Below are positions 798 through 12,179 of a DNA stretch of 12,199 nt, one piece after another; positions within the stretch are counted from its first letter, which is position 1; each line of letters opens with the position of its first letter. The notes under the pieces are model-generated. The model saw nothing but the letters and a program-made list of their open reading frames with translations, was not told where the DNA came from and made no database searches. Origin of the DNA: a virus (lineage: Duplodnaviria; Heunggongvirae; Uroviricota; Caudoviricetes); IMG/VR virus record IMGVR_UViG_3300024346_000020; one strand, 5' to 3'. The position numbers and the translations under genes were made by a program.

Positions 798-3700
798 TTA
801 TACAACCACCATCAAAGCATTTCCAGGAGTTTGATATATATCACCTGGAACTAAACCAGCACTTATTGCTAGACCATTACTTCCATATTGTGGTACATTT
901 CCTAAATTTATAATTCCTCTTAATTTTGTTTTTGTTATTGTATCAGCACCTAATGTTACTGAGTTTGAGCCTGAACCAGTTGCACCATAACCAATAACAA
1001 TTTCATTAGAAACATTTAAGCTTGTTGAGTTTGCGTTATAACCAATATATATGGATGCAGTTGCGTCTACTAAATTAGAATTACTTCCTGCGTATGATCC
1101 AAGAGCTAAATTATATGAACCTGTTCTAACATTGTATAGTGAGTGTACACCAAGAGCAGTATTATAAGTACCAGCTGGTGTTACAGAAGCTATATTTATT
1201 CTAAAACCTGAACCACCAACACCTGGTAAAATAGGTAAACCATAAGGACTATAACTATTATCCCACACACCAAGTACAATTGAAGTATCATGTACAACTG
1301 AACCACCATTAGTAAGAGTAACTGAACTTACTGTACCTCCAGGACCAACAATTATATCAGCCAGTGGGAAATCTGCCAATTGAGTACCTGGATAATAAAC
1401 AGGTCCTGATTTATAATTTAATGGAATACCTGAATATGTACCTGGTGTATAGTTAGAACCTGGTGAAAATGTTGCAGCCAATGTAGCTATTATACTTGTA
1501 TTCCAATTTAATGCACCTTTTCCAATTGCAACATTAAAATCACCTTTATTATTTTTATATAATGTATATTCACCAAGAGCAGTATTATAATTACCAGAAT
1601 TTCCAAAGTTTAATGACTGATAACCTATTCCAATATTATAAGAACCTGTTTTATTCCACAATAGTGAATTAGGACCAAGACCAATATTATATTGACCAGT
1701 TGAAGTATAAAATAGTGCACTATTACCAATTGCAATATTATTACTAGATAATCCAAATATACCACCACCCGTATCTAAATTATTTAATGTATTCATACCA
1801 AGTGCAATATTTGACGAACCATCTACTGCTCTATTCATTGCACTATTACCAATTGCAATATTATAGTAACCTCCTGTATTATAGTATAATACTTCATAAC
1901 CAATTGCAGTATTACTACTTGTATTAGTATTACTATATAATGCACCTTTTCCAACTATAGTATTATAACTACCAACTGAATTATAAAATAATGCACTATC
2001 TCCAACTACAGTATTATATTCACCAGTTGTATTTCTTGACAATGAATTATAACCCACTGCAGTATTTGCCTTACCTGTTGTATTAAAATATAATGATTGA
2101 TAACCAACTGCAGTACATGGAAAGGACACATAACTTGCAACTTTGTATGGACCATCAACTTGAGCAACATAGCTATATAATGCATTAAATCCAACTGCAG
2201 TATTACCACTATTTGATTTATTAGAATATAATGCACCATAACCAATTGCTGTATTAAATCCAGGAACTACTATATTAGAGATTCCTACTGAGAATCCAGT
2301 ACCTGAACCTCCTATACTTGACGCTGGCGCAGTCATTATTGTACTAAGATCCTTAAATCCAGTACCAAAATTTGTTCCTGGTGTAACTGATGTAACTGAG
2401 CCACCAGAAACAACAATTTGAACTCCTGTAGGATATGATATTGCAGTAGAACCACTTAACCATGTTAAATTAACATTTGAATAGGTTCCATTTGTATATC
2501 CACTCCCTCCTATTATTTCACCAAATCCATTAACAATTTGACTTCCAACAAAACCTGAACCTAAAGTAGATGTAGTATTGTACATTGCCTGAACACCCAC
2601 TGCGGTATTATAATAACCAGTTGTATTTGAGTATAATGAATTAGAACCAATTGCAGTATTATAATAACCTAGTGTATTATAATACATTGATTTATTACCA
2701 ACTACAGTATTTTCATATCCAGTTGTACTACTAATTAAGGACTGATATCCAAGTGCGGTATTACCAGAGCCAGTTGTTATATAACTTAATTTTACTGAGA
2801 AAGTTACTCCAGTTCCTAAATTGGCACCCATAATAGTTGTAACATCTTTAAAACCACTACCAGAACTAACTAGTTTAACAGTACTTACAGAACTAGTTGA
2901 ACCAACATAAACAGTTACTATTGGATAAATATTTGCGGTACTACCAGATATATATGATAATTGAACATTTGAAAATGTACTACTTGCTGTATATCCAGAA
3001 CCACCATCAGTTATTATTAAGGTTGCAGTAATTTGTCCTGTTGCAGTATTATTATATAATGATGAAACCCCAAATGCAGAGTTACCATCACCAGTTGTAT
3101 TATTATATAATGACTGATAACCAAGTGCAGAATTATAACCACCAGTTGTATTTGAGTATAATGAATTAGAACCAATTGCAGTATTATTTGTACCAGTTGA
3201 TACTAATAGTGCATTGAATCCATATAAAGTATTTGAACCTCTTGCATCATTATAAACACTTCCATTTGGTGCAACTACTAATGAAGTAACTAAACTTGAT
3301 CCAGTTGTTGCTCTTGTTGAAAATTTAATTCCACCACTAGATACGGCATTATTATAATTACTCATATATCCAGATATAAGACCATATCTATGTCCAACAT
3401 TATAAGGACTATTTGCACCTGGTTGTCCCTGTGATGAGAATGAAATTTCTGATAAATTATTTAAAACACCGTTATTATCACCATTATACAAATCTAACAT
3501 TATATTACTACCAATTGTAGTTGATGATGTACTTGATTGTATAAATAATTTAGCACCACTAATTGATTGTGTTGAACCAATATTTACATAACCTCCTAAT
3601 GTATTAAACATAACCTCACCATCAGTAACCTCAATAGATCTAAATTTATTTAGATCATTTGTCAATGTTGGTTTAATATAAAGACCTATGTCTATTCCTG

Positions 3701-5183
3701 ATGAAGTACCAGTTTTATTTATAGTAGGACTTAGTTCAATCATTCTTAATTGATTATTAGAAGAACTAGCAGCAATTGTATATTCTTGTAATATAATTTT
3801 TTGTGTTAAATTAGAATAACCTGCTGGAAGAGTAGTATATTGTGGGTCAAACTTAAATGTAGCAGTAGCTGTACTATATGCTTTAAATATGATATTACCT
3901 GCACCACCTTCCCACATACCAGTTGCACTATCACTAAATGCATATCTACCACCTGACTTTGATGTAACATAATCTCCATTTGTGTGTATCCCAAAGCCAA
4001 AACCACCTACATTAATATCCAGTCTTGTGTTACTAAAAGCAGAAGAAAATGTTGGTCCTATTGATACTTTACCAGAATCTTCAACTAAGAATATACTTGC
4101 ACTATTACTCCAAGTTGCACCAGTTCCAACAACTTTCATAATACTTGATGTAGTACCTTTAACAAATAATGTACTTTGTTGACTTGCAGGTAAACCATAT
4201 CCTGCAAAAACAATATTTGTACCAACAAATAAATTTCCTATTGTTCCTATTGTGTTTTGTACCTCTATTGGATTACCCCATTGGTTTGTTATTTGATAAT
4301 CAGTAAATTTCCATCCATATTGATAATTATATCCACTTAATGTATCTGTACCGATTATTATTTGCTTACTACCTGGTGAATATATTGAAGTTTTATCTCC
4401 AAAAGTAATAGAACCAGGAGGTAGATTAGAAATTGTTACACCCGTAACTTTTGTACCACCACTAAAAACAGTATCACCTTGTTCATTTACTACTAATGAT
4501 AATGTACCACCAGTTGATGAAACAGAAAATCTACTTGATGTAACTCCAGTACCAACTGATAAAGCACCAGTTCTTACGTTTGAATATGTTCCTATAGAAA
4601 CATTACCCAAAGTAGTCGAACTACTAGTAGTTGAGAAAAACGAAAACTCACTTGAAGATTCATCCCATATAAAAGCTTGTGTAGCACCAGTACCTCTATT
4701 TATAAATAAACCAGAATCCATTGTCGGTGTTCCTAATTGATCACCTGCCAATAACATTATTGGGTCTTTAACAATTAAGTTTTCTGAATTTACTGTTGAT
4801 GTTGTTCCAATAATCAATAGATTACCATTGATAGTAATAGTATCACCATCATCAGTTATTATACTATCACCTAATATAGACTGACCAAGCCATTTAGTAA
4901 CACTATTGGTTGTACCAGATCCAGAAAATCCACTACTTATAGGTGTCCAACTAGTAGTAACTGTAGAATCAGTTCCAGATAAATAATAAAATTTGTTAGT
5001 ATTTGTAACTAATAAAGTACTATAATTTTGTTTTAACTTTTCTGGTATACCATCAAATGCATTATATAAATCGATATTACTAAAAGTAGCAATAATTCTT
5101 AATCCGCCTTTAACATCTGTAACATCAGCAATTGGATAGTTTGGATTATTGTGTCCTAGTATGTCACCAAATTGAATACTCAT
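798..5183 (-). CDS. Large tail fibre / receptor-binding-like structural protein (1461 aa) with ~24 17-aa N-T-A-x-G-x-x-(A/S)-L-Y-x-N-T-T-G repeats
   Basis: Long intact ORF, G/S/T/N-rich. Repeats resemble beta-roll/beta-helix repeats of trimeric adhesins and phage fibres. Three ~90-110 aa inserts split the repeat tracts. The C-terminus (EIVIGYGATGSGSNSVTLG...AGLVPGDIYQTPGNALMVVV) shows no recognisable peptidase S74 chaperone. Confidence 0.75.
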   Translation of the reverse strand: MSIQFGDILGHNNPNYPIADVTDVKGGLRIIATFSNIDLYNAFDGIPEKLKQNYSTLLVTNTNKFYYLSGTDSTVTTSWTPISSGFSGSGTTNSVTKWLGQSILGDSIITDDGDTITINGNLLIIGTTSTVNSENLIVKDPIMLLAGDQLGTPTMDSGLFINRGTGATQAFIWDESSSEFSFFSTTSSSTTLGNVSIGTYSNVRTGALSVGTGVTSSRFSVSSTGGTLSLVVNEQGDTVFSGGTKVTGVTISNLPPGSITFGDKTSIYSPGSKQIIIGTDTLSGYNYQYGWKFTDYQITNQWGNPIEVQNTIGTIGNLFVGTNIVFAGYGLPASQQSTLFVKGTTSSIMKVVGTGATWSNSASIFLVEDSGKVSIGPTFSSAFSNTRLDINVGGFGFGIHTNGDYVTSKSGGRYAFSDSATGMWEGGAGNIIFKAYSTATATFKFDPQYTTLPAGYSNLTQKIILQEYTIAASSSNNQLRMIELSPTINKTGTSSGIDIGLYIKPTLTNDLNKFRSIEVTDGEVMFNTLGGYVNIGSTQSISGAKLFIQSSTSSTTIGSNIMLDLYNGDNNGVLNNLSEISFSSQGQPGANSPYNVGHRYGLISGYMSNYNNAVSSGGIKFSTRATTGSSLVTSLVVAPNGSVYNDARGSNTLYGFNALLVSTGTNNTAIGSNSLYSNTTGGYNSALGYQSLYNNTTGDGNSAFGVSSLYNNTATGQITATLIITDGGSGYTASSTFSNVQLSYISGSTANIYPIVTVYVGSTSSVSTVKLVSSGSGFKDVTTIMGANLGTGVTFSVKLSYITTGSGNTALGYQSLISSTTGYENTVVGNKSMYYNTLGYYNTAIGSNSLYSNTTGYYNTAVGVQAMYNTTSTLGSGFVGSQIVNGFGEIIGGSGYTNGTYSNVNLTWLSGSTAISYPTGVQIVVSGGSVTSVTPGTNFGTGFKDLSTIMTAPASSIGGSGTGFSVGISNIVVPGFNTAIGYGALYSNKSNSGNTAVGFNALYSYVAQVDGPYKVASYVSFPCTAVGYQSLYFNTTGKANTAVGYNSLSRNTTGEYNTVVGDSALFYNSVGSYNTIVGKGALYSNTNTSSNTAIGYEVLYYNTGGYYNIAIGNSAMNRAVDGSSNIALGMNTLNNLDTGGGIFGLSSNNIAIGNSALFYTSTGQYNIGLGPNSLLWNKTGSYNIGIGYQSLNFGNSGNYNTALGEYTLYKNNKGDFNVAIGKGALNWNTSIIATLAATFSPGSNYTPGTYSGIPLNYKSGPVYYPGTQLADFPLADIIVGPGGTVSSVTLTNGGSVVHDTSIVLGVWDNSYSPYGLPILPGVGGSGFRINIASVTPAGTYNTALGVHSLYNVRTGSYNLALGSYAGSNSNLVDATASIYIGYNANSTSLNVSNEIVIGYGATGSGSNSVTLGADTITKTKLRGIINLGNVPQYGSNGLAISAGLVPGDIYQTPGNALMVVV
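2616..3187. repeat. Exact 47-nt direct repeat (2616-2662 and 3141-3187) inside the fibre gene
   Basis: accagttgtatttgagtataatgaattagaaccaattgcagtattat appears twice; it encodes NTAIGSNSLYSNTTG on the minus strand. Confidence 0.9.
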
Positions 5184-5206: not shown

Positions 5207-7960
5207 TTATAATGTTGTTATTGTTACTGTTGTTCCATTACCATAACTATTATCAGCAACTGCAATATATATAGTATATGATACTAATGCACCACTTATT
5301 GTTGTAATTGATAGTGCAGAAGTTCTTTTTATAAATGCAGTTAGTGTACTTGAAACTGTTGGTGGTGGAATCGATTCTGGATAAGGAGTTACTGTTAAAG
5401 ATGAAAGATCTCCTAATGAAGAAGGATAAGCAAATACCAATCTTGAACCAGCACCCCCATCATTGGAAGCGAATTTTTGTGCCTTAGTACCAAATTTATA
5501 ATTTCCAAGTCCTTCCACGATACTTTGAAGAGCAACTGAATTATATGCATCAACATCTGTTTGAGTAAGACTTATAGAAACTTGTCCAATATTAGCATAT
5601 CCATAGTAAAATACATTACTAAATGCCAATGATGCACTAACTGATGTACTATCACTTCCAGTTGCTGCAATTACCTGTGAACCAGATACAATTAAACCAG
5701 TTTTTGGTTTTGATATTGTTGTAGTATAAGTAATACCACTAGATAATCCAACAGTAGATAAAGTTGCACTAACTTTTGGATATGAACCTGAACTAAATGT
5801 ATATGATCCAGTTATTGTAGATGGGGTTGAAAATCCAGTAGTTGCTGCAGGAATACTACTTGTTCCTGTATATTTTACTATACATCCATTAGGTACTGTT
5901 ACTGAATTCGATGTACTAAATGTACCTACTGTAAACGGAGTCATACTTGTTCCAGTACCGTTTATTGCAGTCGGTCCAAATGATGTAGTACCATCAGACT
6001 TATATATCTCCCATCTAGAAACAATTGTCGGAGTAACTAATGATGTTGCTGCCAAGTCTATCTCAACTTGTTGATTATTTAGTTTACCAACTAATCTAGC
6101 AGGGTTTTGTTGAGGTAAATCACCTTGAAAAACTAAATTATATTCAGACGATAATAATACCGATTGTCTATCGTATAAATAATTATCAAATACTAAGTTA
6201 TCTTGTACTGATGAATTATTAGTATTCAAATTATATTGACCTGATAGATTATTCATTGTAATATTAGTTTGTTCAATACCTCTAAAGTTGATATTTTCAT
6301 TATAAGAATTTACTATATTTTGACTACCAATTCCCTTAGTACTAGCTGTTGCATATACATTTCCCCATTGAAATGCTTTTATTGGATTATATAATCCAAC
6401 ATCATCTATCCAATAGCTAATATTTTGTGAATTAGTGCTTACTATATTTGTACCTCTTTCATTTCTATAAATGATTTTATCAGTAAGTCTATCATACTTA
6501 ATTTTATCATAACTAATATTATAATTTGGAGTCGTGTAAGAAAGAAGTAACCATTCTGATAAATCTAAATTATAAGTATCTACTGATGCTAATGTATTAA
6601 CTCCTGAGATATTACTCCATGCTCTACCACCCCAATAAGCAACAGAGTTCGTTGCATAAGATGATGAAGTACCACCCCATATTTTATATCCAGCAACTGT
6701 TTGATCATACTTAGGATTAAAGAATTGACCCTCACCAACATCATTTAAAATTCCTTGTGAATTTGTTGTTAGGTATATTTCTGTACCACCATATAAACCA
6801 ACATCAGCATCTGTTATTCTATAAGTACTAGATGATGACAATGGTGATATTAAAGCAAATTGAGCAACAGTTACTGTAATAACCGGTGTTACACTACCGG
6901 CTCCGGACGACCAACTAAGATTACCTGTACCATCTGTTGTTATAACTTGCCCAAAAGTTCCATCTGATAAAGGTAGTTTATATTGATTATTAATATCAAC
7001 TATACCACCTAAATAAACGGTATCTGAACTATCAACTATTAAATTTTGACCACCAATAACAACTGTATTAGTTAAACTATCATTTACGGTTGTATTTGAT
7101 GATAATATAATGGCATTAGCACTAGTTGGTGTAGTAGAAATAGTATCTATATTGTCCGTAATAAAAATACCATTATATGTAGTCATTACAGCACCATTTG
7201 CACCCAATATACCAATAATATTTGTACCTGATGTTATATAAGCCTCATTATCACTATTAAATTTTAATTGTCCAACACCGCTAATTCCTTTTACATAACC
7301 ACCATCTTTTATTATTAAATTAGGTACATAAACAGAGTTTGATTGTGTTCCAACAATATTAGAACCACCAATAATAACACTATTATTAACGGTATTTGAA
7401 AATCTCGAACCATTTGATGATATAAATGCAGGAATCCTATTACCAGAGGCTCTCACAGTTGTTGCTGTTGTAAATTCTAAAACATTTGTTGTTCCTAACT
7501 TTAAATAAGAGTTGTTATTTTGTAATAGAAATTGATTTGCACCATAAGCTAAACTTATATAGGATGTATTCATTACTACAGATGAGCTTAAACCAGTTAG
7601 TTGAATAGTAGTATCAGTCATAGTTAAAGTAGAACCAGTTATTAAACTAGAAGATGATAATTCTACATAATTACTATAACTACCATTATCTAATCTTAAA
7701 CTAGCAGAGCCACCAGAGGATTTAATACCAGAATTTATATCTAAAAATATAGAATTCGTACCTGTTGTTTTACCAATAGATAATGTTTGTGCAAGTGAAC
7801 CAATTCCACCACCTGATCCAATTGGTGTAATAATACCTAAATGATCTTTTTGTTTTAAAACTCCATCTAATGTATCATACGCAACTAGGAATCCACCAAT
7901 TGAAGAAGGTGTAGCTGCAGTTATCATATTTACTCTACTCTCAAAAAGAACTAATGCCAT
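5207..7960 (-). CDS. Large virion structural / tail-associated protein (917 aa)
   Basis: Intact ORF, S/T/G-rich. Contains the fibre-hinge-like segment LPLSDGTFGQVITTDGTGNLSWS and two short SV(I/V)IGG repeats. Lies 23 nt from the next fibre gene and is probably co-transcribed with it. Exact function not assignable. Confidence 0.65.
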   Translation of the reverse strand: MALVLFESRVNMITAATPSSIGGFLVAYDTLDGVLKQKDHLGIITPIGSGGGIGSLAQTLSIGKTTGTNSIFLDINSGIKSSGGSASLRLDNGSYSNYVELSSSSLITGSTLTMTDTTIQLTGLSSSVVMNTSYISLAYGANQFLLQNNNSYLKLGTTNVLEFTTATTVRASGNRIPAFISSNGSRFSNTVNNSVIIGGSNIVGTQSNSVYVPNLIIKDGGYVKGISGVGQLKFNSDNEAYITSGTNIIGILGANGAVMTTYNGIFITDNIDTISTTPTSANAIILSSNTTVNDSLTNTVVIGGQNLIVDSSDTVYLGGIVDINNQYKLPLSDGTFGQVITTDGTGNLSWSSGAGSVTPVITVTVAQFALISPLSSSSTYRITDADVGLYGGTEIYLTTNSQGILNDVGEGQFFNPKYDQTVAGYKIWGGTSSSYATNSVAYWGGRAWSNISGVNTLASVDTYNLDLSEWLLLSYTTPNYNISYDKIKYDRLTDKIIYRNERGTNIVSTNSQNISYWIDDVGLYNPIKAFQWGNVYATASTKGIGSQNIVNSYNENINFRGIEQTNITMNNLSGQYNLNTNNSSVQDNLVFDNYLYDRQSVLLSSEYNLVFQGDLPQQNPARLVGKLNNQQVEIDLAATSLVTPTIVSRWEIYKSDGTTSFGPTAINGTGTSMTPFTVGTFSTSNSVTVPNGCIVKYTGTSSIPAATTGFSTPSTITGSYTFSSGSYPKVSATLSTVGLSSGITYTTTISKPKTGLIVSGSQVIAATGSDSTSVSASLAFSNVFYYGYANIGQVSISLTQTDVDAYNSVALQSIVEGLGNYKFGTKAQKFASNDGGAGSRLVFAYPSSLGDLSSLTVTPYPESIPPPTVSSTLTAFIKRTSALSITTISGALVSYTIYIAVADNSYGNGTTVTITTL

Positions 7961-9385: not shown

Positions 9386-9396
9386 GTTATATATTA
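9386..9396 (-). promoter_or_regulatory. TAATATATAAC motif, candidate phage late promoter
   Basis: 23 nt upstream of the ATG at 9362. Confidence 0.55.
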
Positions 9397-9419
9397 AAAA
9401 TTATTACTACATTTACATT

Positions 9420-9992
9420 ATGAAAGTTATAGGTATAACAGGAGGGATTGGTTCTGGAAAGACAACAATTACAAAGTATATTGAATCTTTGGGTTATCCT
9501 GTTTATATTGCAGATGATGAAGCCAAAAAAATACTTGATACCGAAGAAGTAGTAAATGAAATTAGAAATACCTTTGGAGAAGAAATTATCGAGAATAATT
9601 TGGTAGATAAGAAAAAGTTAGCTACTTTTGTATTCGGAAATGAGAATAACCTCAAAAAAATAAATGAGATTGTTCATCCAAAAGTAAGACAACACTTTAA
9701 TAACTGGTTAAAACAATGGGATAAACCTTTTGTAGTTAAAGAAGCAGCTATCTTATTTGAAAGTGGTGCTTATAAAGATTGTGATTTTACAATTTTAGTA
9801 ACAGCACCAGAAGATGTCAGAGTTGAAAGAGTTATCAAACGGGATAACACTAACAAAGAAGATGTCATTAAAAGAATAAGAACTCAATGGTCTGATGAGG
9901 ATAAAGCTAAATTAGCAGATTTTGTAATACAAAATATAGATTTAGAACAATCTAAGAAAGAAATTGATCAAATATTGGTAACTATAAAATAA
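9420..9992 (+). CDS. coaE: Dephospho-CoA kinase
   Basis: N-terminal IGITGGIGSGKTT P-loop plus the typical CoaE segments FVFGN...INEIVHPKV, EAAILFE, ILVTAPEDVRVERVIKRD, RIRTQ and ADFVIQN. Length 190 aa. Confidence 0.95.
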   Translation: MKVIGITGGIGSGKTTITKYIESLGYPVYIADDEAKKILDTEEVVNEIRNTFGEEIIENNLVDKKKLATFVFGNENNLKKINEIVHPKVRQHFNNWLKQWDKPFVVKEAAILFESGAYKDCDFTILVTAPEDVRVERVIKRDNTNKEDVIKRIRTQWSDEDKAKLADFVIQNIDLEQSKKEIDQILVTIK

Positions 9993-10224: not shown

Positions 10225-10269
10225 ATTTTGAAAAAATGTTCAAAAATATGAAAAGGTAGAAAAACTTTT

Positions 10270-10279
10270 TAATATATAG
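10270..10279 (+). promoter_or_regulatory. TAATATATAG variant of the candidate late promoter, upstream of the two CAU tRNAs
   Basis: 9/9 match to the TAATATATA core, intergenic, 16 nt before the first tRNA-like gene. Confidence 0.4.
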
Positions 10280-10295
10280 AACTATAAACATATAT

Positions 10296-10366
10296 CGCGT
10301 TAAAGTGTAAAGGTTGCATGAGAGTCTCATAAACTCCACGGGGTGGTTCGAATCCACGAAACGCTA
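10296..10366 (+). tRNA. Atypical tRNA-like gene, anticodon CAT (Met or Ile2; possibly non-functional)
   Basis: Anticodon arm agagt-ctCATaa-actcc; T arm gtgg-ttcgaat-ccac; acceptor cgcgtt/aacgct with C1:U72 mismatch. Mismatches at 7:66 and 49:65, and A rather than U at position 8. Confidence 0.55.
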
Positions 10367-10412: not shown

Positions 10413-10485
10413 CGCGGGATAGAGCAGTTGGCAGCTCGTGTGGCTCATAACCATAAGGTCGGAGGTTCGAGTCCTTCTCCCGCTA
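10413..10485 (+). tRNA. trnfM: tRNA-Met(CAT), initiator (fMet)-like
   Basis: cgcggga/tcccgct acceptor with C1:U72 mismatch, fMet-type D arm, CAT at 10446-10448, T arm ggagg-ttcgagt-ccttc. Only two of the three diagnostic anticodon-stem G-C pairs are present. Confidence 0.85.
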
Positions 10486-10509
10486 CTAAATAAAAAAAGT
10501 TAAAAAAGA

Positions 10510-10540
10510 TTTGGTGGGTTAAAAACTTATCGTATCTTTG
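10510..10540 (+). promoter_or_regulatory. Bacteroidetes-type housekeeping sigma promoter driving the leader and tRNA array
   Basis: TTTG 10510-10513, 19-nt spacer, TATCTTTG 10533-10540. Confidence 0.8.
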
Positions 10541-10581
10541 CATAGAAGAATTAAAAAACAACAATTTAAAAAATAGAAAAA

Positions 10582-10683
10582 ATGACAACAATTACTAACA
10601 TAACAATAGCTATCGAAGCCATAGGCGGGTATGAAGCGGGGTATACAATACCATCGGTCAGAAGCGTTATGTGTATAAAGTAA
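10582..10683 (+). CDS. Putative attenuator leader peptide (33 aa, MTTITNITIAIEAIGGYEAGYTIPSVRSVMCIK)
   Basis: Below the ORF-track cutoff. A-rich initiation region typical of Bacteroidetes (aaaaaatagaaaaaATG). Sits between a consensus promoter and an intrinsic terminator; TAA at 10681-10683. Confidence 0.65.
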   Translation: MTTITNITIAIEAIGGYEAGYTIPSVRSVMCIK

Positions 10684-10709
10684 TGAGTTAAAAAACATTA
10701 TTATATAAC

Positions 10710-10747
10710 AAACCCAATCTGACGTAAAAATCAGATTGGGTTTTTTT
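10710..10747 (+). terminator. Intrinsic terminator, probably conditional (attenuator)
   Basis: aaacccaatctga (10710-10722), 8-nt loop, tcagattgggttt (10731-10743); T7 tract 10741-10747. Ends 14 nt before tRNA-Tyr. Confidence 0.9.
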
Positions 10748-10761
10748 ATTGAATTATATCT

Positions 10762-10843
10762 GGGTAGATATGCAAGTGGTTAAAGCTGGCAGACTGTAAA
10801 TCTGTTCTCATCGAGTTCGGGGGTTCGAATCCCTCTCTGCCCA
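10762..10843 (+). tRNA. trnY: tRNA-Tyr(GTA), canonical class II
   Basis: gggtaga/tctgccc acceptor, gcaga-ctGTAaa-tctgt, long variable arm ctc-atc-gag, ggggg-ttcgaat-ccctc, A73. Confidence 0.95.
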
Positions 10844-10851
10844 CAAAATAT

Positions 10852-10924
10852 GGTGTATTCGTCTAGCGGTAAGGATTACGCTTTTTCAAAGCGGAGGACG
10901 TCGGTTCGAATCCGACATACACTA
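10852..10924 (+). tRNA. trnE: tRNA-Glu(TTC)
   Basis: ggtgtat/atacact acceptor, cgct-ttTTCaa-agcg anticodon arm, gtcgg-ttcgaat-ccgac T arm. Confidence 0.9.
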
Positions 10925-10989
10925 CAAAGATGTAAATAAGTTATAACAGGATAGTAAGACCTAACACCGTGTAAATGATATATCTAATC

Positions 10990-11057
10990 GGGATGGATTA
11001 TGGTGATAGCCGGGTCTGTAAAACCCTAGCAGGAGAGTTCGAGTCTCTCGCATCCCA
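10990..11057 (+). tRNA. Compact atypical tRNA, anticodon GTA (Tyr-like), 68 nt
   Basis: gggatg/catccc acceptor (7:66 mismatch), D arm ttat-ggtg-atag with 4-nt loop, gggt-ctGTAaa-accc, 5-nt variable loop, gagag-ttcgagt-ctctc. Confidence 0.65.
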
Positions 11058-11065
11058 CAAAATAT

Positions 11066-11139
11066 GCTCTTGTCGTCTAACGGTAGGACTCCAGCTTCTC
11101 AAGCTGATGTAAATGCGGGTTCGATCCCCGTCAAGAGTA
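11066..11139 (+). tRNA. trnE: tRNA-Glu(CTC)
   Basis: gctcttg/caagagt acceptor, cagc-ttCTCaa-gctg, 7-nt variable region, gcggg-ttcgatc-cccgt. Confidence 0.88.
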
Positions 11140-11146
11140 CAAAATT

Positions 11147-11255
11147 GGGTTAACTTCCGGTGTAGGAACCGGCGTCCTCGTGTGAGAGAGGAAGCTAACA
11201 AAGCTAAGGAAAATGGTGGTAAACAAACCACGAGGTGCGAGACCCCTTTAGCCCA
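11147..11255 (+). ncRNA. 109-nt tRNA-like structured RNA with extra arms
   Basis: 7-bp terminal stem gggttaa/ttagccc + A and the same caaa trailer as the tRNAs. Hairpins ccgg/ccgg, tcctc/gagga (8-nt loop), agct/agct and tggt/acca, plus an imperfect T-like arm with loop tgcgaga. Confidence 0.55.
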
Positions 11256-11262
11256 CAAAGTA

Positions 11263-11367
11263 GATATTTGAGTGTAAGCAAGTACAATATCAGTCGTTAG
11301 GTTCTTACAGACAGTGAACGGTGGTCCGAATGTCATTATTCGGTGATGGATACCGGCAACTCCATCA
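11263..11367 (+). ncRNA. Candidate structured RNA (possible pseudoknot plus two hairpins)
   Basis: gatatt/aatatc, tgtaag/cttaca (crossing), ccgaat/attcgg, tgatgga/tccatca. Boundaries uncertain. Confidence 0.4.
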
Positions 11368-11372
11368 TATAT

Positions 11373-11444
11373 GATCCGGTCTTCTAATGGTCAGGAATCC
11401 AGGTTTTCATCCTGGCAATCGGGGTTCGATCCCCCGTCGGATTA
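11373..11444 (+). tRNA. trnE: tRNA-Glu(TTC)
   Basis: gatccgg/tcggatt acceptor, ccagg-ttTTCat-cctgg, cgggg-ttcgatc-ccccg. Confidence 0.92.
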
Positions 11445-11455
11445 CAAAAAAATAT

Positions 11456-11530
11456 TGGTAAGTAGCTTAGACGGTAGAAGCATCTGTCTTATACACAGAA
11501 GATAGTCGGGTTCGATACCCACCTTACCAA
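11456..11530 (+). tRNA. trnI: tRNA-Ile(TAT)
   Basis: tggtaag/cttacca acceptor, D stem gctt/aagc, tctgt-ctTATac-acaga (TAT 11490-11492), T arm gt(c)ggg-ttcgata-cccac with one bulged C. Confidence 0.85.
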
Positions 11531-11539
11531 CAAAAAATT

Positions 11540-11611
11540 GCGGGAGTCGTATAATGGCTATTATGCTGGACTTCCAATCCAGAGATGAGGTTTCGACTAC
11601 CTTCTCCCGCA
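11540..11611 (+). tRNA. trnG: tRNA-Gly(TCC), atypical (U53:A61, A73)
   Basis: gcgggag/ctcccgc, ctgga-ctTCCaa-tccag, gaggt-ttcgact-acctt. Confidence 0.85.
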
Positions 11612-11674
11612 CAGAATATGGAATAACATCGGTCCCGTAATGCCATGGCTCGTGCACGAGTAACGGGATGCCAT

Positions 11675-11747
11675 GCAAAAGTAGCTCAGTTGGTAGAGCT
11701 CCTGCCTTCCAAGCAGGTTGTCGCGAGTTCGAATCTCGTCTTTTGCT
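11675..11747 (+). tRNA. trnG: tRNA-Gly(TCC), canonical
   Basis: gcaaaag/cttttgc, cctgc-ctTCCaa-gcagg, gcgag-ttcgaat-ctcgt, U73. Confidence 0.95.
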
Positions 11748-11752
11748 CACAT

Positions 11753-11790
11753 GCCGGAGGACTCCCTGTTAGTCCCAGGGTCCGGCTCCA
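11753..11790 (+). ncRNA. Candidate Gly-like minihelix ending in UCCA
   Basis: gccgga/tccggc stem followed by T-CCA; GC-rich interior with alternative 5-bp helices. Confidence 0.35.
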
Positions 11791-11794
11791 ATAT

Positions 11795-11866
11795 GCGAAA
11801 ATAGCTCAGTGGTAGAGCACCACCTTGCCAAGGTGGGGGTCGCGGGTTCAACCCCCGTTTTTCGCT
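11795..11866 (+). tRNA. trnG: tRNA-Gly(GCC)
   Basis: gcgaaaa/ttttcgc, ccacc-ttGCCaa-ggtgg, gcggg-ttcaacc-cccgt, U73. Confidence 0.95.
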
Positions 11867-11945
11867 CAGTATAAGTGGTTTAAGTTGTAGAAATCTCTAT
11901 ATCTAAGACGTTAGATGTAAATTTTTATACACCACTTTAATTATA

Positions 11946-12089
11946 AAGATAGTAGTAATATAAAGCGTTACTTCGTATTCAAACGACTATTATAGGTTCG
12001 AATCCTATTGTCCGCACAAATAATTTAAAATGCGGATATAGTGTAATGGTAGCACAGTAAAAACACGTTTAATAAACTTTCTCTATCTT
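11946..12089 (+). ncRNA. Circularly permuted tRNA mimic with paired termini; YrlA-type Y RNA-like
   Basis: T arm (11992-12008) and acceptor 3' strand tgtccgc (12009-12015) come before the complementary acceptor 5' strand gcggata (12032-12038) and D arm (12041-12055). Flanks pair: ttac/gtaa, aagcg/cgttt, aagatag/ctatctt. Confidence 0.7.
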
Positions 12090-12095
12090 ATTTTT

Positions 12096-12169
12096 GGGGG
12101 ATTAGCTCAGATGGCTAGAGCGCTTGCCTTGCACGCAAGAGGCCACCGGTTCGACTCCGGTATTCTCCA
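12096..12169 (+). tRNA. trnA: tRNA-Ala(TGC)
   Basis: gggggat/attctcc with G3:U70, cttgc-ctTGCac-gcaag, accgg-ttcgact-ccggt. Confidence 0.95.
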
Positions 12170-12179
12170 CAACAATTTT

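Follow-up and report, generated by a model that had tools for sequence, protein, structure and literature searches.

The window and its genes

The stretch of DNA analysed here ("the window") comprises 12,199 nucleotides of a virus of the Caudoviricetes (IMG/VR record IMGVR_UViG_3300024346_000020), and coordinates without an accession or contig name refer to it. Its – strand carries a 1461-aa ORF (798–5183) with PHROG matches to virion structural/tail-spike proteins (1e-57) and an adjoining 917-aa ORF (5207–7960) for which no PHROG match was found; a 190-aa ORF (9420–9992) has weak kinase-like PHROG matches. Beyond these genes the + strand carries a copy of a phage-wide motif, TTTTTAATATATA (10266–10278), a weak tRNA-like element (10296–10366), an initiator-like tRNA-Met gene (10413–10486), a Bacteroidota-type promoter (10510–10540), a short leader ORF (10582–10683), an intrinsic terminator (10710–10747) and a tRNA operon (10762–12170). 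A previous sequence-only reading of this DNA had described the promoter, leader and terminator as preceding the tRNA genes. That order stands, but the unit lies within the array and not ahead of all of it, as the tRNA-like element and tRNA-Met are upstream of the promoter. Our nearest relative for comparison is G001, a 105-kb IMG/VR fragment that is 97% identical over the module, and the more distant relatives are the "uncultured phage" assemblies LR745206.1 (634,780 bp) and LR756501.1 (735,411 bp).

The promoter consists of a –33 TTTG (10510–10513), a 19-nt spacer and a –7 TATCTTTG (10533–10540), which bears out the consensus host promoter proposed by the sequence-only reading and assigns it to the Bacteroidota type. 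The pattern TTTG-N17-21-TAnnTTTG is matched five times in the window against 0.59 expected, and five matches were reached in none of 200 shuffles; it is not matched on the + strand of the window past 10540, and the window contains no TAnnTTTG box downstream of 10747 that the array could use. The promoter motif is retained among orthologues despite a change in the spacer. The word TTAGGTAGA...TAnnTTTG is not exclusive to such modules, and one of its four copies in LR745206.1 precedes a protein gene. Phages with genomes over 634 kb have been predicted to infect Bacteroidetes (Al-Shayeb et al. 2020, PMC7162821), which fits the type of promoter seen here. A further full promoter match (9599–9630, + strand), which lies inside the 190-aa ORF and closely resembles the promoters of the G001 modules, may drive the tRNA-like element and tRNA-Met that lie upstream of the unit.

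The phage-wide motif is probably a phage-specific promoter, to judge from its distribution. The 12-mer TTTTAATATATA is present in 14 copies in G001 and 46 in LR745206.1 (0–1 for the reversed control), typically 8–26 nt 5' of gene starts. Within the window the motif is found on the + strand only at 10266–10278, upstream of the tRNA-like element and tRNA-Met, and on the – strand at 9388–9398; no copy lies past 10747. The earlier statement that the tRNA genes have no further consensus promoter thus holds on the + strand past 10747 for host-type and phage-type motifs alike. Many leader modules have the motif 7–9 nt 5' of the leader ATG, downstream of the host-type promoter; if it is a phage promoter, these modules would have dual promoters and nearly leaderless leader mRNAs. 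Copies are also found inside two gated arrays of G001 (40224–40235 and 23067–23078, + strand), in insertions absent from the window, so some distal tRNAs there may escape the gate.

The operon downstream of the terminator encodes, according to ARAGORN and Rfam, tRNAs Tyr-GTA, Glu-TTC, Glu-CTC, Glu-TTC, Ile-TAT, Gly-TCC, Gly-TCC, Gly-GCC and Ala-TGC, and the spacers separating these genes are tRNA-like. There are no protein genes between 10747 and 12199, and the regulated genes are these nine tRNA genes. The first, tRNA-Tyr, starts at 10762, 14 nt past the T tract; the corresponding gap is 13–23 nt in most of the related modules, which leaves no room for a promoter, and this implies that the tRNAs are made only by read-through of the terminator. 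The G001 array likewise ends with Ala-TGC, and the next tRNA gene there is 16 kb away. Sub-threshold tRNA-like elements (Rfam scores 25.4 and 22.1 bits) or long structured spacers occupy 10296–10366, 10990–11057, 11141–11372, 11613–11674 and 11868–12095. The tRNA-like elements may be degenerate, intron-bearing or mimic tRNAs, and if they are real the codons of the leader could hint at their identity.

The tRNA-Met (CAT; 58.7 bits, found by both ARAGORN and Rfam) has a C1xU72 mismatch and an A11:U24 pair, which are hallmarks of initiators, as well as two of the three anticodon-stem G:C pairs, and it lies upstream of the promoter and leader, so it is not gated by them. An ungated tRNA-Met is placed identically before the module in G001, LR745206.1 and the contigs L101, L107 and L070. 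Leader units precede 36 of the 37 tRNA genes in G001 and 40 of the 41 in the LR745206.1 stretch that was scanned, and the one exception in each is an initiator-like Met; this fits the gate model, since elongation stalling could not sense the initiator.

The leader ORF and its codons

The leader ORF begins with ATG 41 nt past the –7 box, after an A-rich and unstructured 5' region, and has 33 codons and a stop, as the sequence-only reading gave it; its N-terminus, MTTITNI, is of a kind found throughout the family of modules described below. The following codons 7–23 (10600–10650) encode I T I A I E A I G G Y E A G Y T I, so that 15 of the 17 specify Ile, Ala, Glu, Gly or Tyr, which are exactly the five identities of the downstream tRNAs. 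At the codon level 12 of the 17 can be read by anticodons of the array, among them four ATA codons for Ile-TAT (a fifth ATA, codon 32, is outside the run); the GCT, GCC and ATC codons match the array only at the amino-acid level. The run is broken by Thr at codons 8 and 22, and the array has no Thr tRNA. Taken alone, the composition of this one leader is modestly unusual (p ~0.014 when the amino-acid usage of genes in the window is taken as background). A PHROG search with the leader peptide found no match.

Contigs from RNA (metatranscriptome) libraries of lakes and fresh water, in which admixture of DNA is possible, span the leader (10569–10711) with zero differences, and one such contig (10664–10842) bridges the terminator into tRNA-Tyr. 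Such contigs are uninformative about RNA ends and could be of DNA origin, and they are compatible with both terminated and read-through RNA.

The terminator and an alternative RNA pairing

The strong terminator that had been read at 10710–10747 is confirmed. It has a 13-bp stem (10710–10722/10731–10743), an 8-nt loop, a T7 tract (10741–10747) and a hairpin energy of –17.8 kcal/mol, and it is the longest and strongest of eight terminator-like sites in the region (2.1 expected). Four segments of the RNA can be arranged in the manner of a classical attenuator: region 1 (ACATAAC, 10598–10604) would pair with region 2 in untranslated RNA; region 2 (10657–10673), within leader codons 26–31, would be the 5' strand of an antiterminator; region 3 (10702–10723) would be its 3' strand and overlaps the loop-proximal part of the terminator 5' arm (10718–10722); and region 4 (10731–10743) is the terminator 3' arm. 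The alternative helix had been proposed to consist of GTCAGA (10657–10662) with TCTGAC (10718–10723) and of 10666–10673 with 10702–10709, its 5' side lying in the last codons of the leader; these pairings are indeed in the minimum-energy fold when the terminator 3' arm is withheld, and the placement of region 2 agrees. The further proposal that this helix sequesters the terminator 5' arm is right for the loop-proximal part only, as just five of the 13 stem positions are overlapped in the window. This loop-proximal segment of the arm is where hairpin formation would start.

Folding of growing transcripts, a check suggested with the original proposal, gives the three pairings in the order 1:2, then 2:3, then 3:4. 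Region 1 pairs with region 2 (10598–10604/10666–10672) in transcripts extending up to 10710 (1:2 belongs to the minimum-energy structure of the full leader and to those of transcripts with ends at 10675–10710), the 2:3 pairing is seen from 10723 to 10736, and the terminator appears together with 1:2 at 10743. Region 2 begins 13 nt past the last sensing Tyr codon and ends 8 nt 5' of the stop; with this spacing a ribosome stalled at codons 7–21 would leave region 2 free, and a ribosome that has reached the stop would mask it. The terminator state is the more stable at equilibrium (–40.4 versus –28.7 kcal/mol), the antiterminator being weaker by 10–14 kcal/mol, so any switch must be kinetic. In the trp attenuator the terminator likewise wins at equilibrium and control is kinetic.

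In the window considered by itself nine of the 13 arm bases pair upstream, against 5.8 in shuffles, and 17% of shuffles do as well, so this number is not significant. Of 17 pre-terminator folds, 15 have the terminator arm paired to the leader tail. GTCAGA is retained in all six orthologues, and the orthologous terminator of LR745206.1 has a compensatory A>G / T>C pair. The alignment of the six orthologues is too gapped in its divergent rows for column-wise covariation, and permutation among paralogous modules was used in its place (below).

Conservation of the leader and rearrangement of the operon

The original proposal depended on conservation of the ORF, and the leader is in fact identical in G001, conserved in L101 and L107, and represented by homologous leaders in LR745206.1 and L070. 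L107 (85% identical) differs from the window in codons 10–18 by five synonymous and zero non-synonymous changes; the array can read all five of the changed codons in their L107 versions, and three of the five window versions are not readable. The non-synonymous differences of L101 and L107 are at codons 22 and 31. In L101 about 34 extra nt that include a hairpin-like repeat (2917–2950 of that contig) are inserted between the –7 box and the leader ORF, and a sequence resembling this insertion is a loose end in a freshwater RNA-library contig (X24).

The operon itself has been differently organised in different lineages. LR745206.1 and L070 have a separate Glu/Tyr operon, preceded by a Y/E leader, and an Ile/Gly/Ala operon, preceded by an I/A/G leader; the lineage of the window has one operon and one merged leader with both sets of codons.

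Leaders match their arrays in related phage modules

A scan anchored on terminators covered three IMG/VR contigs and 50 kb of LR745206.1 in addition to G001, and 16 non-redundant modules were tested; as the leader of each we took the longest ORF that starts with ATG and has its end no more than ~45 nt from the terminator, a rule that was formulated after the first cases had been seen. (A 15-mer scan of viral contigs gave mostly chance matches, and BLAST filtering left L020, L101, L107, L070 and L100/L011.) Every tRNA block in the scanned stretches is preceded by a promoter/short-ORF/terminator unit, and the contents of leader and block go together. His, Phe, Trp and Lys tRNAs follow an H/K/F/W/S leader, and Arg and Ser tRNAs an S/R leader; Asn, Ile-GAT, Val, Cys and Thr are found behind an N/V/I/T/C leader that uses ATT, Gln, Asp and Pro behind a P/Q/D leader, and four Gln tRNAs behind a leader with a run of Q. 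Over the 16 modules, 49 of 50 tRNA identities are present in their own leader. When leaders are reassigned to arrays in every possible way, the natural assignment scores higher than any other among the 720 permutations of G001 and among the 120 of LR745206.1, and it beats all 100,000 pooled permutations at both the amino-acid and the codon level; related modules share ancestry, so the pooled permutation overstates their independence, a problem from which the within-genome tests are free. The correspondence extends to individual codons, in that ATA is found in leaders before Ile-TAT and ATT in the leader before Ile-GAT. It is also specific to the reading frame, with 156 of 458 codons matching in the ATG frame as opposed to 62 and 54 in the other two, and to position within the ORF: matching is concentrated at codons 7–21 and peaks at 75% at codons 12–16, versus 16% at codons 2–6 and 27–31 (16 modules).

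The 3' part of each leader is in addition complementary to the arm of its own terminator. The mean duplex energy is –9.83 kcal/mol for the true pairs and –6.92 ± 0.51 kcal/mol for permuted ones, none of 100,000 permutations does as well, and within LR745206.1 the true pairing is the best of 120. The parts of the element, their conservation, the correspondence between codons and tRNAs and the module-specific alternative pairing are matters of observation. On this basis we consider it likely that the operon of nine phage tRNA genes is gated by a ribosome-mediated (leader-peptide) transcription attenuator, with feedback on tRNA supply. The trp/thr/ilv-type geometry claimed for it earlier is upheld: regions 1–4 are present, and codon matching, frame specificity and the complementarity of leader tail and terminator arm all speak for it. 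The comparisons also support the view that the predicted attenuator is one member of a modular family whose response would be demand-driven.

The same observations bear on three other explanations. Translation of the leader might instead set the fate of the precursor RNA, by protecting it from or exposing it to RNase or Rho, with the hairpin acting as a processing or stability element and the tRNAs made by constitutively leaky read-through. The codon/tRNA match and its frame specificity show that decoding matters without saying how it acts, and with a terminator that always wins at equilibrium some other read-out of stalling is conceivable. But the hairpin of every module is a canonical intrinsic terminator with a T6–T8 tract, and complementarity of a leader to its own terminator arm would have no role in an RNase or Rho model, so that we think this explanation improbable.

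Somewhat less probable still is that the small ORF is an independent gene for a short peptide, its likeness to an attenuator being incidental, and that the tRNAs come from partial read-through without regulation or from a phage promoter that has escaped recognition. Huge phages do use their own promoters, of which the genome-wide TTTTAATATATA motif is a probable example, and the leaders do have a common N-terminus (M, K/N/T, T, I/N, x, N, I; M-x-T-I-T-N-I), as might be found in a functional peptide. Beyond that N-terminus, however, the peptides diverge totally and follow the local set of tRNAs, the synonymous-only changes favour codons that the array can read, and the segment complementary to the terminator is specific to each module; the 13–23 nt gaps are too short for a promoter, and the phage motif is absent past 10747. 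The suggestion of a T-box-like mechanism, in which the leader RNA would detect tRNAs by direct codon–anticodon pairing without translation, would suit the nature of the regulated genes and the presence of cognate codon-like triplets, but it is extremely unlikely given that the many matching codons lie in one ATG frame with its stop just before the terminator and match in that frame specifically, that no specifier-loop or T-box sequence was recognised, and that a scan of 4227 Rfam families (E up to 1) found no T-box or other cis-regulatory family, its matches being tRNA and two chance plastid models only.

Similar units in other phage genomes

LR756501.1 was analysed afterwards with a fixed rule (a perfect stem, at least five T, and the longest ATG ORF ending within 45 nt). 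The rule found three modules, and in all three the leader matches its array: Ser/Lys/His/Phe/Trp, Leu, and Met/Gln/Ile/Glu. The strict terminator finder misses modules of this genome whose T tracts are interrupted. A looser scan found a fourth, in which a T/P/A/V/R/G leader is followed by Arg, Thr, Val, Ala, Gly and Pro tRNAs, and a composition-guided (hence biased) search found a fifth, in which Ile, Cys, Asp, Asn and Tyr follow a Y/N/D/C/I leader; neither of these last two was counted in the tests.

The cultured Caulobacter phage phiCbK (JX100813.1) has annotated terminators immediately 5' of tRNA blocks; ahead of two of the three lies a small ORF matching the block. The gp083 unit has an ORF of 45 codons in which Ser, Leu, Pro and Lys are frequent and an annotated terminator, followed by tRNAs for Pro, Pro, Lys, Lys, Leu (three) and Ser (two); in the second unit an ORF with the core QFVRQIQVVRNI and a terminator precede Phe, Val, Ile, Ile, Val, Gln and Gln. 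These units belong to the same class as the window module but have no sequence similarity to it, and they are in a GC-rich genome of a phage whose host is of another phylum.

The small ORFs in the tRNA region of phage T5 were considered as leader units and rejected, as they are not parts of promoter/leader/terminator units and mostly mismatch the neighbouring tRNAs. One of them, the 91-aa ORF T5.072 (10618–10893, – strand, of AY543070.1, our L136), has promoter P14a and the genes for tRNA-Tyr, Glu, Trp and Phe downstream of it, and it too is not part of such a unit. Its first 30 residues include SWEGWEGEIEWLYFY, a resemblance that is suggestive and may be a coincidence.

A model for the control of tRNA synthesis

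What the design of the leader would sense is the speed of decoding at specific codons. In the working that we propose for the attenuator, transcripts carrying the 33-codon leader would start at the host-type promoter or enter from upstream, and the codons sensed would be ATA, GAA, TAT, GGC/GGG and GCN, which are decoded by tRNAs encoded downstream. If codons 7–23 were decoded fast, the ribosome would move over region 2 to the stop, the terminator would form and the transcript would end at about 10747. If a matching charged tRNA were scarce, slow decoding would stall the ribosome, break the 1:2 pairing and leave region 2 free; it would pair with region 3 while the terminator 3' arm is still to be transcribed, and RNA polymerase would read into the tRNA genes; a rise in tRNA supply would then relieve the stall and restore termination. 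RNA that is not translated would be expected to form 1:2 first and to terminate. The inferred steps are the stalling itself, the way in which ribosome position would affect RNA folding and the direction in which the system would respond, and the scheme assumes that transcription and translation are coupled in Bacteroidota. Cleavage or depletion of host tRNAs, named as the trigger in the sequence-only reading, could plausibly set off such a response.

We can also imagine, more tentatively, that the phages possess a family of "codon-menu" sensors, in which the leader of each tRNA operon samples every codon family that the operon serves and is rewritten whenever tRNAs are gained or lost or operons split or merge. 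Such a leader would measure decoding capacity and not amino-acid supply, and it would turn on whichever tRNAs are limiting, including after attack by anticodon nucleases or other tRNA-targeting defences, so that it might serve as an inducible counter-defence.

Why phages carry tRNA genes and how these are expressed are open questions, and compensation for codon usage and escape from tRNA-targeting defences are both debated as reasons. If the leader reads the decoding speed of the codons that its array serves, the phage's tRNA supply would be demand-driven and homeostatic, classical attenuation would extend from protein genes to RNA genes, and the leaders would give a direct read-out of the codons that a phage expects to be limiting in its host. 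They would also aid annotation by marking the boundaries of tRNA-array operons, and may predict the identity of odd tRNA-like genes. The design is found in uncultured huge phages of Bacteroidota and, as partly checked, in the cultured phage phiCbK, which would make a tractable system in which to test it.

Comparison with known systems

Full-text searches of the literature found no description of leader-peptide attenuation of tRNA genes, in agreement with the statement in the sequence-only reading that no characterised attenuator of phage tRNAs was known. The phiCbK genome paper and the huge-phage paper (PMC7162821) mention neither attenuation nor leaders. The attenuation mechanism of pheL is described in PMC3082878, which mentions a tRNA operon in another context only.

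The window element has the features of the attenuator class (a 5' leader ORF, reporting codons, an intrinsic terminator and a predicted, mutually exclusive antiterminator) with the exception of its target, which in that class is a set of proteins for biosynthesis, transport or aminoacylation and here is nine tRNA genes. Leaders that report on more than one amino acid are well known among enterobacterial attenuators, for example thrL (Thr/Ile) and the ilvGMEDA leader (Ile/Val/Leu), and other members of the group are trpL, hisL, leuL and pheL. The phage module is like these in its short ORF of regulatory codons, its regions 1:2, 2:3 and 3:4 followed by a U tract, a stronger terminator and hence kinetic control, and the several amino acids per leader. 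It is unlike them in that it controls tRNA genes and not biosynthetic enzymes, so that the loop would close on tRNA abundance or decoding speed, and in that its leaders sample up to seven amino-acid identities each. The phage family is also modular, with numerous units in one genome, each recoded to suit the tRNA block that it precedes, and with promoters of the Bacteroidota type.

Two other systems approach it from the side of the translation apparatus. The pheM leader of pheST attenuates an operon for an aminoacyl-tRNA synthetase, and like the phage module it acts by leader-peptide attenuation on a gene of that apparatus, but it controls a protein gene and reports on one amino acid. T-box riboswitches (RF00230) resemble the module in using a terminator/antiterminator switch to report on a specific tRNA pool, but they bind uncharged tRNA directly, without translation, whereas the signal in the window is frame-specific. 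The comparisons support the conclusion that what is new here is the application of classical ribosome-mediated attenuation to tRNA genes; the working logic itself is already known from the thr and ilvGMEDA operons.
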